IMG/VR virus record: IMGVR_UViG_3300021365_000005
Location: 33,457-97,456 of that record
Length of the DNA stretch: 64,000 nt
Strand: one strand, 5' to 3'
Source: a virus
Part shown: positions 33,935 through 56,702 of the stretch, in pieces
How positions within the stretch are numbered: position 1 is the first letter of the stretch
How the letters are laid out: each line of letters begins with the position of its first letter
The notes under the pieces: generated by a model
Databases searched by the model: none
Seen by the model: only the letters and a program-made list of their open reading frames with translations
Told to the model about the DNA's origin: nothing
Position numbers and translations under genes: made by a program

Positions 33935-36900
33935 TTAAAATGTGATTTTGCTAAAGTCATTAGTTACATTGATTTCAAATAGATTATCAGCCACATCTCG
34001 TAATGCATCTAAATGTGATATAACTAAAATGAACGAAAACTCAGATTTTAAATAGTCAAACAACATAAACATGCTATTAAGGTTCTCAGAGTCTAGAGTT
34101 CCAAATCCTTCGTCGATTGCTAGGAAGTTTGGTCTTGGTAGGTTTGAAACATTAATTAAGGCAACTCTAATCGCTAAGGACGATATAAACTTTTCCATTC
34201 CAGAAGTTAATTCTAGTGGCCATGAGCTTTTATCATATTTAATAAATGTTAAAATGTTTTTGCCATCTGTTTCAAACACAATTGTAAACTCTACAAGTTG
34301 TGCTAGGATCTCATTTACTTCGTCTTGAATTAAAGGAAGCACTTCTGAAATAAGCTCATAAGGTACACCATCTCTTTTTATTGCTTCAAGATAGTATTCG
34401 TATGCTTTTAGCTTATTTTCAACATCATTAGCATTATCAATAGATTCTTCTATTTGGGCTATTTTTGTTCTTGCAAGCTCACGTTGTGTGTGCTTTTGTT
34501 TTATTATTGATTGAAGATCCTCTAGATATGCTGTGGCTATTTCAAGATCACCTTCTATAGTAGAAATTTCATTAGCAATTATTTCATTATGCTTAAGATC
34601 TCTTTTGTTTGCATGATACTCAGAGATTTTATTAGCATTGATTGCCATAGTTGACTTTAGATTGTTAATTTTAGACTCTATATTGGTTCGGTCCACCTTA
34701 ATACCTAATTGACTAGTTTTTATATCCCCTAAACGAACTTTTAAGGTATCATAGCGAGATTTATTTTCAATATGTGGTAATAAGTCTTCTATCGTAGTTT
34801 GCAATTTTGCAATCTTTTTCGAATACTCATCAGCATTTATTTTATCAGAGGCCAAATCAACTTTTGCTTGCTGTGCTTGTTTAACAAATGGATTATTAAC
34901 ACAATATGGACAATCAGGATCGTAAGAATGGTTTTCAAGTTCGCATACCAAGTTCTTTTTTTGTTTGGCAGAAGCTAATAGGATTTTTAACTTGACGTCG
35001 GTGGTGTCTTTGTCGGATATAGCATCATAATACTCGGCGGCTTTAGAATTTACTAAATCAAGATCTATATGAGCAATTTCATTTGCAATTTCTAAATAGG
35101 TTTGTTTGTTGGCTTCTGTTTTAGGATCGAGATCGGACAGAAGGGTATGGCTATTTTCTATGGCCTTGACTAAGCTCCCAGACTCTTCTATAAGTTGGTC
35201 AATGTCTACAGGGGAAATTGTTTGACGAAGTTTTTTTGACTTGTTTAGAATTTTACCAGATAACTCTTCTATTGTTTTTTTGAATTTTTTTTCTGTAACA
35301 GAAGCCGTTGCATACTCTGTTGAAGCTTCCTGTAGATCTATTCCTGCATCGACTAACTGCTGATCATAATCCATTTTCTTAAATTCCCTTAGGGAAACTT
35401 GGACATCTCGAATTTCTTCTGTTGCAAGACTATAAATTTCTTCGAAAACTGTTATGTCCATAAACTGGGCTAACAGGTCTTTGCGTTCGGTCTGGGACTT
35501 GTTTATAAACCCTGTATTATTGTTTTGTACAGAAAGGGCTGTTAGCTCAAAGTCTTCATACTTGCCAACGTAACCTCTAATATTTTTATTGGTGTCTCTT
35601 CTTTGTTCACCATTTAACGATACCTCAGATCCATCTTCACCTATCATCCAAAAGTTAACGTCGACCTTGACGTTTGATTTTCCAGACTTTACTCTTTTTG
35701 CTTTTCGTTCGACAAAAAAGTCTACCCCATCTACTTCAAAGTTAAATTTACAGTAAAAGTTTAAAGACTTGTTGTTCATAACGTCTTCAGCCTTTTTAGT
35801 TCTGCTGCACTTATCGAACAAACAAAATGCTATTGAATCTAAAATTGCAGACTTGCCTGAGTGGTTTGCAGCAAATAAACCCATCAACCCAGACGCTTTG
35901 TCAAGGTCAATACTATTGTCAGGACCATAACTAAACATGTTTGAAAATTCAAACTTTTTAGCTTTCCAAAAAATATTTCTTGAGATTTCTACTGGAGCAA
36001 GATCCTTGTTTAGAGCACGATTAATATTTTTAACCCTATCGATTATAACAGGATCAGCAGAAAAATTTCTTTCTATATACTCTCCAATTAACTCATTTTG
36101 GTATTCAACATCCCTGACATTATTGACTAGGGCTTTTGAAGTTTTATTAGTGGCTGTACCGGCTACTTTATCTAGCTTAACAACCATTGCATCGGCAAAT
36201 GTTGCTTTTTTCCTAACAGAGCTTAGTAAAGTTTTTAGTTCTGCTTCGGTGGTGTTAGTGGTTCTAATTCTTAGTCTAGGAAACTTAGGAATTGTTTTAA
36301 TGTTAGGTAACACCCCATCAGTAATATCAATGGTATAGAAGCCATGATCGTTATGGATATGAGTAAAGCTGCTAGACAAGTCAGCAGTGTTCCAAGTAGT
36401 ATAGCCATGGTTCTCATAGGCTTCTCCGAAGTTTTGTTGGACTAACGATCCTGGATAATGTACCCTTTTGTCAATGTCCAAATATTGATGTTTGTGAATG
36501 TCTCCGAGTAGAACTAGATCATAGCCAGCAAACATACCAATGCCATGATTTAAATTTGTAACCTTAAACCCCCCGTCAGTCATAGACGAATCTACTGCAC
36601 CATGAAAAAATGCAACTTTAAGTTTATCATCAGGTATGTCTTTTGCTTGAATATAGTTTTCATGATTGTCAGCAATATCAAATACACTAAGATATAAGTC
36701 TGCTGCTTCATACACTTCAGTTTTATCTAGGTAGTGTAGATTTGGATGTTTTAGGCTATCATATATAGGTCTTAAAGCATCCATTCGACTTTTGTTGTTT
36801 AAGTTCATATCGTGGTTGCCACGAATAAAAACTGTGGGTCGCCGATCTGCAAGCTCTCTTAAAAATTCAGAAGTTAAGTCTATAAGTTCTGGGGACATGT

Positions 36901-37087
36901 CAATTTTATTATGCACAATGTCTCCGGCTATATATACAATAGATTTTTCTGGTAGTGCGTCTACAGCTTTATAAACCTCGGTAAATATTTTTCTATATTC
37001 ATCGTGGCGATTATAATTCCTAATATGTATGTCTGCAATATGAAATATTTGCTCTACAGAGCTTATACCAATATTAAGCTTTTGCAT
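33935..37087 (-). CDS. Fused Mre11/SbcD (gp47) nuclease and Rad50/SbcC (gp46) ATPase
   Basis: DIH, GD, GNHD, GDIH metallophosphoesterase motifs; NHSGKS Walker A, CPYC hook, SGME signature, IDEGFG, ISH. Confidence 0.93.
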   Translation of the reverse strand: MQKLNIGISSVEQIFHIADIHIRNYNRHDEYRKIFTEVYKAVDALPEKSIVYIAGDIVHNKIDMSPELIDLTSEFLRELADRRPTVFIRGNHDMNLNNKSRMDALRPIYDSLKHPNLHYLDKTEVYEAADLYLSVFDIADNHENYIQAKDIPDDKLKVAFFHGAVDSSMTDGGFKVTNLNHGIGMFAGYDLVLLGDIHKHQYLDIDKRVHYPGSLVQQNFGEAYENHGYTTWNTADLSSSFTHIHNDHGFYTIDITDGVLPNIKTIPKFPRLRIRTTNTTEAELKTLLSSVRKKATFADAMVVKLDKVAGTATNKTSKALVNNVRDVEYQNELIGEYIERNFSADPVIIDRVKNINRALNKDLAPVEISRNIFWKAKKFEFSNMFSYGPDNSIDLDKASGLMGLFAANHSGKSAILDSIAFCLFDKCSRTKKAEDVMNNKSLNFYCKFNFEVDGVDFFVERKAKRVKSGKSNVKVDVNFWMIGEDGSEVSLNGEQRRDTNKNIRGYVGKYEDFELTALSVQNNNTGFINKSQTERKDLLAQFMDITVFEEIYSLATEEIRDVQVSLREFKKMDYDQQLVDAGIDLQEASTEYATASVTEKKFKKTIEELSGKILNKSKKLRQTISPVDIDQLIEESGSLVKAIENSHTLLSDLDPKTEANKQTYLEIANEIAHIDLDLVNSKAAEYYDAISDKDTTDVKLKILLASAKQKKNLVCELENHSYDPDCPYCVNNPFVKQAQQAKVDLASDKINADEYSKKIAKLQTTIEDLLPHIENKSRYDTLKVRLGDIKTSQLGIKVDRTNIESKINNLKSTMAINANKISEYHANKRDLKHNEIIANEISTIEGDLEIATAYLEDLQSIIKQKHTQRELARTKIAQIEESIDNANDVENKLKAYEYYLEAIKRDGVPYELISEVLPLIQDEVNEILAQLVEFTIVFETDGKNILTFIKYDKSSWPLELTSGMEKFISSLAIRVALINVSNLPRPNFLAIDEGFGTLDSENLNSMFMLFDYLKSEFSFILVISHLDALRDVADNLFEINVTNDFSKITF

Positions 37088-51845: not shown

Positions 51846-52107
51846 ATTTATTCTCTAGCTTATCCATAACTTTTTTTAGATCCTTGAATATAGATCCAAT
51901 TTCATCGTCAGCTTCAAAGCCGCCTTTATGATCTATTCGCTTCATTTCAGAAAATGTTTTATGGAGATCGCCATAAAGTTCAACCATTGTGTTGTATAAA
52001 GATTCACAATCAGAAACAGCCGCGTCTAGTTTTCGAAGCAAATTCCAAATTATGAATGCAGAAATAATTGCTTCTACTAGAATAAATATTGATAGTAATA
52101 AAATCAT
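51826..52107 (-). CDS. Membrane-anchored hypothetical protein
   Basis: N-terminal TM helix, D..G.FE.DDE.G..F motif. Confidence 0.6.
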   Translation of the reverse strand: MILLLSIFILVEAIISAFIIWNLLRKLDAAVSDCESLYNTMVELYGDLHKTFSEMKRIDHKGGFEADDEIGSIFKDLKKVMDKLENKYGTDKD

Positions 52108-52850
52108 TCGCCGAACAAGTCCTTAAATAGGTCATTTGCTTTTTCACTAGCTACAGAAACAGTTTTCTTTTTATTGCCACGAGGAAGATTACTAGGCTTG
52201 CTAGATCTAGATGCCTTTGCAGTGTCATGCTCTATTCTAGATGCCATGTGATCTGCGTGGTGAAGAAGTATTGGCAAATGGTTTTGTAATTCTTTTTGAG
52301 GATTGTATGTCTTAAAATAAGCCTCATTAGCTTGGTCATATAATCCATCATGGCATCTAATAGCTATTGCTTCATTAACCGTAAAAGGAATTCCAAAGTC
52401 TTGTAATAAAAATAAGCTTCTATCTGGTACAGTCATATGTCTTAACTTTGGATGATAGTCATATATTTTACCTTGGTTTTTTCTATGCCACTCCGAAGGG
52501 TTAGGAATGTAGTATGGAAATTCGCGATCGCCAATTTTACCAAGGTCGTGATTCAATGCAGAAAACATAAGTTCCTCTTCAGTAAAGTCAGAAGATATTG
52601 CTCCCATTAAGTTCCACGACTTGTGGAGTTCTTTAGCACATTTAATAACTCGAAGGACATGATCTACATAACCACCCTCAAAACAATTATGATAATGTTC
52701 TAATCCTGATGCAGGTGCTATAACCATTCTTTCTTCAAAAAAGGAATACATAGCAAGCAGGTTATCTTTTCGAGTTCCACTAAATTCAGTGGAAATTATT
52801 TCCTGAAGCTCTGCCCAATTGTCTAAAAGTTGTTTGTCTGTTAATTTCAT
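52104..52850 (-). CDS. HD-domain phosphohydrolase
   Basis: PAS...H..F.GG...H, HDLGK, HDG, H.AD. Confidence 0.88.
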   Translation of the reverse strand: MKLTDKQLLDNWAELQEIISTEFSGTRKDNLLAMYSFFEERMVIAPASGLEHYHNCFEGGYVDHVLRVIKCAKELHKSWNLMGAISSDFTEEELMFSALNHDLGKIGDREFPYYIPNPSEWHRKNQGKIYDYHPKLRHMTVPDRSLFLLQDFGIPFTVNEAIAIRCHDGLYDQANEAYFKTYNPQKELQNHLPILLHHADHMASRIEHDTAKASRSSKPSNLPRGNKKKTVSVASEKANDLFKDLFGE

Positions 52851-52851
52851 A

Positions 52852-53481
52852 TTAGCCTATTTCGTCGATGATCCCAACTGCCATGGCTTCTTGAGCCGTG
52901 AAGTATTTGTCATGGGAAGTTTCTTGAGTCCACCACTTAGCGGGCTTTTTTGTATACTCTTCTAAGATCTCACCGATCATTATATCAATCTTAGTATAGT
53001 GTTCTGCAGTAGATTTTAAATCTCCAATTTTACCTGATGTAGTTCCCATACCTTGGTGCAACATTATTGAGGATCTTTTAGAAGCATATCGGGTTCCGGT
53101 ACCTGCAGCTAGTATAAGTGCTCCTGCTGACATTGCTTTCCCTCTGCAGATAGTATTAACAGGAACGTCTAGATTTTCCATATAGTCTATAATACCTAAG
53201 GCAGAAAACGCACAGCCGCCGAATGAATCTATAACTAAATTTATTGGAAGAGTTGCTTCAGACTCGTCTCTATTATTCATAACCATTCGACACTTAACGA
53301 TAATATCCGCTAGACTAAATTCGTCAATAGGACCTGTAAGGTAGACCAGAGAATCTTTAATTGATAATCCATTTTCCAATTCACTTAGATCTGGAGGAGT
53401 TTTCTCAATTGTTATTTCAATAGGAGTCTCGTCTTTTTTTAAGACTTTTTCTTTATATAAATCTTCTGACATGTTAATCAA
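52852..53481 (-). CDS. clpP: ClpP-family protease subunit
   Basis: I.S.GG, G.AMSAG (Ser), MLHQ (His), HD.YF.A.EA...G.ID (Asp). Confidence 0.92.
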   Translation of the reverse strand: MINMSEDLYKEKVLKKDETPIEITIEKTPPDLSELENGLSIKDSLVYLTGPIDEFSLADIIVKCRMVMNNRDESEATLPINLVIDSFGGCAFSALGIIDYMENLDVPVNTICRGKAMSAGALILAAGTGTRYASKRSSIMLHQGMGTTSGKIGDLKSTAEHYTKIDIMIGEILEEYTKKPAKWWTQETSHDKYFTAQEAMAVGIIDEIG

Positions 53482-56006: not shown

Positions 56007-56107
56007 TATAATTCTCCAAATATGTTCCGCCTTCCTCCGGGCTTTAATGATACGACTAGAATAGATCTAATCTTGCCCTGTTAATACCAGCAGCTCCGGG
56101 TACCTTA

Positions 56108-56140
56108 TTAGGCAGCCATTGCTAGTTCAACTTGTTCGCC
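56108..56140 (-). other. tmRNA tag reading frame (A)GEQVELAMAA*
   Basis: TTAACT-GGC GAA CAA GTT GAA CTA GCA ATG GCT GCC TAA TAA; stops in a hairpin loop. Confidence 0.88.
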
Positions 56141-56201
56141 AGTTAATTGCGTTGTGATCTTCTGAATGCTCTTATCATATGGTCAAATCCAAAATCACCC
56201 C

Positions 56202-56268
56202 CATATTATATCTATTTGAATATAATTCATTAGATATTGATCATATTATATCTAATTGAATATAATTC
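56202..56268. repeat. 27-bp direct repeat, two copies, in the tmRNA intervening segment
   Basis: catattatatctaWttgaatataattc at 56202 and 56242; one mismatch. Confidence 0.9.
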
Positions 56269-56334
56269 TTTGTGGAGGTGGGGGGAGTCGAACCCCCGTC
56301 CCGATATGTAGCTGACACTCATACTTCGATCATC

Positions 56335-56342
56335 TATAAATA
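56335..56342 (-). promoter_or_regulatory. Putative late promoter TATTTATA driving the tmRNA
   Basis: Directly abuts the inferred 5' end of the acceptor piece. Confidence 0.7.
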
Positions 56343-56348
56343 TAAGGT

Positions 56349-56702
56349 CTAGCTCATTAATGCTGAGAGTTTCTTATGTTTATTATATAGTTTATTCACG
56401 ATCTTGAGATCGGTGTTATCCTTCAGCTTTGTAGATCGATATTTCATTAGAATATCAAATACTTGTTTAGCATCAGATTTAATATCAGCAGAGTCAAAGT
56501 TTCTTAAGCCAGTCGACCTTTTAATATTATCATGGATCAGAGCTAGTACTATATCTAATTTTTTAATAGTAGAATCTGAATCATTCTCATCCTCTAGAGA
56601 ATTCATAAAGGTGTTTAGGGTTCCAGTTAAATTTGAGTTACCCCTTTTCCTCCACTCCTTTTTTTCTAGAGGCTTTTGTTTTTGCTTTTTTGGCATTAAC
56701 AT
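56349..56702 (-). CDS. Hypothetical protein
   Basis: Open frame in the operon; start uncertain. Confidence 0.55.
   Translation of the reverse strand: MLMPKKQKQKPLEKKEWRKRGNSNLTGTLNTFMNSLEDENDSDSTIKKLDIVLALIHDNIKRSTGLRNFDSADIKSDAKQVFDILMKYRSTKLKDNTDLKIVNKLYNKHKKLSALMS

Follow-up and report, generated by a model that had tools for sequence, protein, structure and literature searches.

The tmRNA frees stalled ribosomes, and its first pseudoknot is regarded as almost indispensable. To our knowledge, a split tmRNA gene is known from only three bacterial lineages, plus some mitochondria, and the classical two-piece tmRNAs are said to go back to the work of Keiler in 2000 and of Sharkady and Williams in 2004. 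Almost all tag-encoding tmRNAs possess pseudoknot 1 (PMC1168896; PMC3985003), yet it is not strictly defining for a tmRNA, and the two-piece forms typically retain pseudoknots 1 and 2 (PMC3985003). Permuted genes have also been found in phages: of the 133 distinct phage tmRNAs, mostly marine, counted by Buchholz et al. 2022 (PMC9004378), 53 are permuted, a covariance family for them (RF04321, tmRNA_permuted) originates from the 2025 tmRNA database paper (PMC11915505), and our own pattern scan for the permuted layout returned at least 120 viral contigs. The phage two-piece tmRNA is thus a kind of gene that is already known and that standard tools detect, and the novelty implied in a preliminary description of the locus studied here, made from its letters alone, has to be given up in view of these counts and of the annotated tmRNA of Maribacter phage Panino. 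What is undescribed in the literature that we searched is such an RNA without pseudoknot 1, with one pseudoknot and with a resume region of Bacteroidota-like character, from a lineage of marine myoviruses close to Immutovirus.

The locus lies in a stretch of 64,000 nucleotides (the window) taken from an IMG/VR virus record of 97 kb, for which CheckV gives a completeness of 56%. We consider it highly probable that a true two-piece (circularly permuted) tmRNA gene is maintained here by selection, in a T4-like myovirus that is marine and uncultured; the gene is real and conserved, and it is almost certainly functional. The identification as a phage-encoded circularly permuted tmRNA, already proposed in the preliminary description, is borne out by ARAGORN, which calls a permuted tmRNA (tmRNA*) with the tag GEQVELAMAA at 56017-56363, and by RF04321 (Rfam 15), which scores 59.5 bits (cut-off 47, E = 5e-9) over model positions 1-213, that is, the full model, and 62.4-70.3 bits on the relatives. 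Since both programs call the gene above threshold, it was a mistake to expect that standard annotation would probably overlook it. The classical models stay below threshold: beta_tmRNA (RF01850) is the best of the clan, with 40.5 bits against a gathering score of 84 and an alignment that spans the full model (tag end GCAAUGGCUGCCUAA and terminal hairpin included), and both alpha (RF01849; threshold 50) and cyano (RF01851; threshold 70) score less than these 40.5 bits. A gathering-threshold Rfam scan of the whole window returned tmRNA_permuted alone, with 0 matches to any riboswitch family.

Each sequence element was re-located in the window, and the coordinates and pairings given beforehand are all correct on the minus strand (Table 1). 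Read in this direction, the gene begins with ATATTTATA, the 3' strands of three helices, GAC, the T arm, CACCTCC with A73, and a spacer, after which come GGGGGTG, the D-loop analogue, the 5' helix strands, 14 unpaired nucleotides and the tag frame.

Table 1. Elements of the permuted tmRNA gene in the window, in the order of the minus strand.
Feature	Position	Strand	Content or remark
Promoter-like motif ATATTTATA	56335..56343	(-)	2 nt ahead of the first tmRNA helix strand
Acceptor piece	56273..56332	(-)	P2 3' strands, GAC junction, T arm, acceptor 3' strand, A73
P2c, 3' strand	56332-56328	(-)	
P2b, 3' strand	56321-56315	(-)	
P2a, 3' strand	56308-56301	(-)	
T arm	56297-56281	(-)	GGGGG-TTCGACT-CCCCC
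Acceptor 3' strand	56280-56274	(-)	CACCTCC
Discriminator A73	56273	(-)	
Intervening segment	56203..56272	(-)	AT-rich, 70 nt; presumably removed from the precursor
Coding piece, 5' part	56155..56202	(-)	Acceptor 5' strand, D-loop analogue, P2 5' strands
Acceptor 5' strand	56202-56196	(-)	GGGGGTG
D-loop analogue	56195-56183	(-)	
P2a, 5' strand	56182-56176	(-)	
P2b, 5' strand	56169-56163	(-)	
P2c, 5' strand	56159-56155	(-)	
Single-stranded linker	56141..56154	(-)	14 nt, CAACGCAATTAACT; normal site of pseudoknot 1
Tag frame	56105..56140	(-)	GGC..GCC, (A)GEQVELAMAA, and stops TAA TAA; ARAGORN; tag at 56140-56111
Helix-5-like hairpin	56101..56114	(-)	UGCCU/AGGUA, stop codon in loop; RNAalifold
Single H-type pseudoknot	56039..56089	(-)	3' of tag; RNAalifold and inspection

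The alanine-type tRNA-like domain is complete, with the 7 acceptor pairs, G3-U70 and A73 all present as had been claimed, and the three helices through which the two pieces were proposed to zip together (CCATATG/CATAT(C)GG, GCATTCA/TGAGTGT and GATCA/TGATC) were found in the window and are kept among the relatives. The covariation set for these helices consists of 20 distinct full-length members from marine viral and metagenome contigs, which fall into subgroups A and B (alignment A2). In these homologues, the 31 proposed pairs hold in 94-100% of cells and 8 pairs carry compensatory changes; in a control in which the partner strand was slid by 1-3 nt, 2-91% of cells are paired overall (2-58% in the P2 helices, 55-91% in the acceptor and T stems). 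The acceptor helix (7 pairs) and the T stem (5 pairs) are intact in 20 of 20 members, that is, paired in 100% of cells, and each has one compensatory change (G-C to A-U in the acceptor), with G3-U70 invariant in the family. P2a (7 pairs) is paired in 97% of cells, with four compensatory changes, P2b (7 pairs) in 94%, with two, and P2c (5 pairs) in 100%, with no compensatory change and two one-sided G-U changes. Covariation, which the preliminary description had named as a check on its reading, is therefore present among the homologues in the acceptor stem, the T stem, P2a and P2b. Additionally, when the two pieces are cofolded (RNAcofold), the minimum-energy structure consists of exactly the 26 intermolecular pairs of the acceptor and P2 helices. 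The T arm of the family has a GUUCGANU-type loop. As for the 3' end, described beforehand as an incompletely encoded CCA, this is right for the window, where C74 only is present, and does not extend to the relatives L148, L153 and L154, which encode the full CCA.

The two pieces are separated by a spacer, which measures 16-20 nt in 18 members and 70 nt in the remaining two, the window and L147, and the sequence of which is unrelated between members. The greater length in these two is due to a direct repeat of 30 nt, present in no other member (in the window, 56202-56231 and 56242-56271, 93% identical, at a spacing of 40 nt), the last base of which is G1 of the coding piece. A hypervariable spacer beside conserved mature parts is characteristic of two mature RNAs linked by a segment that can be discarded, and the gene order, the spacer and the conserved flanks together fit a mature RNA made of two pieces.

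In this RNA, the end of the last P2 helix and the resume codon are 11-14 nt apart in all 20 members (14 nt in the window), and pseudoknot 1 is therefore absent, there being no room for it, as the preliminary description had recognized. Measured from G1, the resume codon follows after 56-62 nt in the family; of the other permuted phage tmRNAs examined, nearly all have 78-125 nt here. The RNA is minimal, as that description also called it, but it is not free of pseudoknots, one being present 3' of the tag. We assume that the RNA is active without pseudoknot 1; the long intermolecular P2 helix, which ends 11-14 nt before the resume codon, would probably do the positioning job of the missing element. 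Two other permuted phage tmRNAs, in the viral contigs L068 (408-693, tag ANDNFALAA) and L011 (3041-3426, tag DNVYQLGGVQLRAVA), have 57 nt and 63 nt, respectively, from G1 to the resume codon and hence also no room for pseudoknot 1. The tmRNA gene of L011 lies among tRNA-Met genes and has a spacer of 92 nt, and a capsid homologue was found neither in the L011 record (91% complete) nor in that of L068 (only 12% complete).

The tag GEQVELAMAA, followed by TAA TAA, stands where it had been placed at the outset, and ARAGORN gives the same tag. Its start, GGC-GAA (Gly-Glu), is indeed Bacteroidota-style, that is, as in Bacteroidota-type tmRNAs. Glycine resume codons also occur, at the normal pseudoknot 1 spacing, in permuted tmRNAs of the viral contigs L019, L036, L106, L122 and L126 (tags GAYNAPLALAA, GTFNSPLALAA, GNQYGSYMSSGYALAA and similar), so that the minimal family is not alone in starting with Gly. 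Within the family, the tag peptide is identical in all 20 members and the frame is intact throughout. At the nucleotide level, 19 of 20 members agree in all 30 tag-coding bases (56111-56140), and L138 departs from them by a single synonymous change, despite the diverged and compensated helices on either side; this conservation at synonymous sites exceeds what the peptide alone explains, and in subgroup A the frame lies partly in a long hairpin.

Downstream, the stop codon is presented in the loop of a helix-5-like hairpin, whose strands are UGCCU/AGGUA in subgroup A and UGCCU/AGGCA in subgroup B; in L138, a compensatory change gives UGCUU/AAGCA. The single pseudoknot that follows is formed in the window by UGGUAU (56089-56084) with GUAUCA (56053-56048) and by GGGC (56078-56075) with GCCC (56042-56039), and its loop accommodates a variable hairpin (56072-56054), for which subgroup A shows numerous compensatory changes. 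In subgroup B, the pseudoknot consists of ACGGY/RUCGU and GAGGC/GCCUC, both of which covary (U-G, U-A and C-G; GGGAU/AUCCC and GGGGC/GCCCC). An outer helix CACCC/GGGUG, considered as a closing helix of the 3' domain in subgroup B, was rejected: it overlaps the covarying helix 5, and its register is lost in L138 and in subgroup A.

Concerning its distribution, a pattern search with the extension of the acceptor piece located 5 viral and 23 marine metagenome loci, and many samples together supply 31 loci (24 distinct stretches) with the permuted layout, which is also found in Logan contigs of 12 studies. This recurrence speaks against a misassembly, which the preliminary description had named as a possible flaw. 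In the 185,579 GTDB species genomes, neither a family-specific pattern nor a degenerate tag pattern had any match (0 in both cases), so that no bacterial or prophage copy is present among the species representatives. Against 50,697 phage records, the 2-kb region gave no blastn match, and a short-query search of cultured phages returned T-arm matches only, to unrelated phage tmRNAs.

The gene itself sits between ordinary phage genes, in a window where all genes are on one strand and include a T4-type major head protein, a portal, a large terminase, a baseplate wedge and an ATP-dependent ligase. A 153-kb phage of subgroup B (87% complete) has a major capsid protein 51-62% identical to that of the window, which indicates that the tmRNA gene has been inherited within one phage lineage. 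The nearest cultured phages are Flavobacterium phage vB_FspM_immuto (49% identity in the capsid, 53% in the terminase) and Microcystis phage Mel-JY01 (47% and 57.5%, respectively), and the tmRNA is absent from both. A Bacteroidota host is a reasonable guess; the use of Shine-Dalgarno sequences in the phage is low but mixed, and the Bacteroidota -33/-7 promoter motif was neither clearly enriched nor clearly biased towards one strand. Downstream of the tmRNA, at a distance of about 2.6 kb, the window encodes a ClpP-family protease (52852-53481, minus strand; Pfam E = 1e-33), whose nearest clusters are viral, adjoined by an HD-domain protein (52104-52850, minus strand). A fixed partnership of ClpP and tmRNA was considered and discarded, the protease being missing from the 87%-complete phage of subgroup B. 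Elsewhere in the window, one ORF of 1050 residues (33935-37087, minus strand), whose N-terminus (14-348) matches SbcD/Mre11-type nuclease families and whose remainder (302-1048) matches SbcC/Rad50-type ATPase families, appears from its sequence to be a fused SbcD-SbcC nuclease-ATPase.

The motif ATATTTATA, which stands immediately before the first helix strand, occurs in 11 exact copies in the window (2.45 expected), all on the gene strand (minus strand; 5543, 6579, 7313, 17698, 20865, 25270, 33923, 41063, 49263, 56335 and 57613), each of them at most about 50 nt upstream of a start codon, and the genes so preceded include the terminase and structural genes. At the corresponding spot upstream of the tmRNA, ATATTTAT is invariant in 20 of 20 members. 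Read on the coding strand, ATATTTATA is the late-promoter word of T4, TATAAATA, in reverse complement, and it is probably a promoter element of the phage lineage, perhaps a late one; on this reading of the motif, the acceptor piece would probably start at or near P2c. A promoter scan found no sigma-70 promoter-like site upstream of the tmRNA gene on the gene strand, and a terminator scan found no terminator 3' of it. The gene, spacer included, is present in contigs of metatranscriptome libraries from three studies, which may contain DNA, and the four RNA runs, available as contigs, show presence only, not ends, strand or expression level; RNA-library contigs of a relative hold a version with a 17-nt spacer. 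A search of the family's two phage records (G000 and G001, 56% and 87% complete) detected no SmpB gene, which points to the use of host SmpB, although neither record is complete.

Taken together, these elements suggest a way of working in which the gene would be transcribed from the phage ATATTTATA motif as one precursor, which RNase P would cut at G1, and from which host enzymes would trim the spacer and complete the CCA. The RNA would then be charged by the host AlaRS and used by host SmpB, EF-Tu and ribosomes for trans-translation during infection, with the outcome that ribosomes stalled on broken messages are rescued and their products marked with a degron ending in AA. The ribosome-rescue function as such (alanylation, SmpB binding and trans-translation) is inferred.

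Other readings of the locus have to be weighed against this one. That the structure has no function, being either an assembly artefact or the decaying remnant of a host tmRNA at an integration site, has a background of its own, because tmRNA 3' ends are common phage attachment sites and ssrA fragments do occur in prophages (PMC9004378); nevertheless, this reading is contradicted by the same layout in 31 loci (24 distinct stretches) and in the Logan contigs of 12 studies, by helices kept through compensatory changes, by a tag frame intact in all members and by the position of the gene among ordinary phage genes, behind a phage promoter-like motif. Covariation and recurrence across independent assemblies thus refute the non-functional reading for practical purposes, and we give it next to no weight. 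An RNA that works to a different end, as a competitor that soaks up host SmpB, AlaRS or EF-Tu, or as a re-router that swaps the host tag for its own, is improbable rather than negligible. A tag-less tmRNA-like RNA of mycobacteriophage DS6A inhibited the host tmRNA in E. coli (as cited in PMC11915505), and the missing pseudoknot 1 might impair normal function; other points in favour are a tag that differs mid-sequence from GENNYALAA and ends in AMAA, and the ClpP encoded by the window's phage. In the family, however, the tag frame, the helix-5 stops and the resume context are invariant in 20 of 20 members, which argues that the frame is translated, and ClpP is not a fixed partner, as seen in the subgroup-B phage that lacks it. 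We retain a tmRNA used for ribosome rescue as the preferred reading.

The origin of the RNA is less clear-cut. For comparison we used one-piece tmRNAs with the tag GENNYALAA, which came from viral contigs and one of which stands next to a DnaB gene whose cluster is dominated by Bacteroidota; in Bacteroides, the tag reads GETNYALAA (10.1101/2025.03.18.644028). The family shares with these Bacteroidota-type forms (GENNYALAA, GETNYALAA) the resume codons GGC GAA in the upstream context CAAUUAACU (AAUUAACU-GGCGAA being common to the family and the one-piece GENNYALAA tmRNAs), with the latter the UUUGGAC junction and a nearly identical P2a with a bulged U (CAGCAAG/CUUGuUUG), and, in the case of subgroup B, the T stem GAGGG/CCCUC. 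The one-piece RNAs differ in being colinear and 393-399 nt long and in possessing both pseudoknot 1, with the resume codon at position 95-98, and the complete pseudoknot domain, whereas the family RNA is permuted, about 225 nt when mature, with one pseudoknot and the tag GEQVELAMAA. In a similarity ranking based on 30 nt at the 5' end, 45 nt at the 3' end and the context of the resume codon, the average is closer for the one-piece GENNYALAA tmRNAs (0.71-0.72, as against 0.65-0.67), and in the same crude ranking single other permuted phage tmRNAs score as high. On these sequence features, descent from a Bacteroidota-type one-piece tmRNA is about as probable as its opposite, and the stricter statement, an independent permutation derived from Bacteroidota, falls at or slightly below an even chance.

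The competing origin is a real two-piece tmRNA of a classical permuted lineage (most likely betaproteobacterial), acquired by a phage, in which it would then have lost pseudoknot 1. It can call on the best match of the clan being beta_tmRNA, aligned over its full model, on donors at hand in the form of permuted tmRNAs of many tag types, which are abundant in marine viral contigs, and on L068, which has the tag ANDNFALAA and no room for pseudoknot 1 and ranks as close as the Bacteroidota-type forms. We nevertheless regard it as unlikely, given that beta_tmRNA reaches only 40.5 of the 84 bits, with alpha and cyano lower still, and that both the GGC-GAA start in its AAUUAACU context and the bulged-U P2a match the one-piece genes. 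The tmRNA database, which comprises 97,179 sequences, lists 48 permuted tmRNAs in Bacteroidota assemblies (18 alpha, 23 beta and 7 cyano), against 24,380 standard ones (PMC11915505), and these 48 entries may include phage contigs binned with their hosts. Our tentative proposal, which we hold with rather less than even confidence, is a fourth independent permutation, comprising the family and probably the Panino-like form, drawn from a Bacteroidota one-piece source, confined to phages and working without pseudoknot 1, with P2 placing the resume codon.

Whatever its origin, a conserved phage two-piece form of roughly 225 nt that encodes a tag without pseudoknot 1 is a natural minimal construct with regard to what trans-translation requires. 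If the Bacteroidota-type origin is true, one further independent permutation event is added, and phages of hosts with one-piece tmRNAs carry their own re-engineered version. The gain lies in classification and mechanism and not in a new class, annotators already detecting the gene.

Among the described systems, the phage tmRNAs of Melnitz (a phage of OM43), of pelagimyophages and of cyanophages (PMC9004378) resemble the present one in being permuted ssrA genes of large marine myoviruses, and they also share the arrangement of acceptor piece, spacer and coding piece, the ARAGORN call and the presumed use of host SmpB. These tmRNAs are of the alpha or cyano type, with tags such as ANDN...ALAA, while here the resume codon is Gly and the classical models stay below threshold; they have room for pseudoknot 1 (at least 78 nt from G1 to the resume codon, as in nearly all other permuted forms measured), which is lacking in the family, and Melnitz carries a glutamine riboswitch, where the window has no Rfam riboswitch match. 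With the classical two-piece tmRNAs (of Alphaproteobacteria, a betaproteobacterial group and marine cyanobacteria), the family has in common the permutation, a long P2 and fewer pseudoknots, and it differs from them in the loss of pseudoknot 1, as they typically keep pseudoknots 1 and 2 (PMC3985003). Another likeness is with the annotated tmRNA of Maribacter phage Panino (PP540027, 27557-27889), which is permuted (ARAGORN tmRNA*, RF04321 63.9 bits), has 60 nt from G1 to the resume codon and hence no pseudoknot 1, and shows the 5' end GGGGGUGAUUGGAUUUGAC, a P2a CAGCAG/CUGuUUG, UAACU before the Gly resume codon GGU, and a flavobacterium as host. The paper on Panino mentions the tmRNA and is silent on its permutation and reduced size (Environ Microbiome 2024, PMC11590407). 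The two differ in the tag, GKVMNVSFAPTVRQFA being longer and less canonical than GEQVELAMAA, and in their setting, since the Panino gene lies in a tRNA cluster of a 77-kb phage that is unrelated to the phage of the window.
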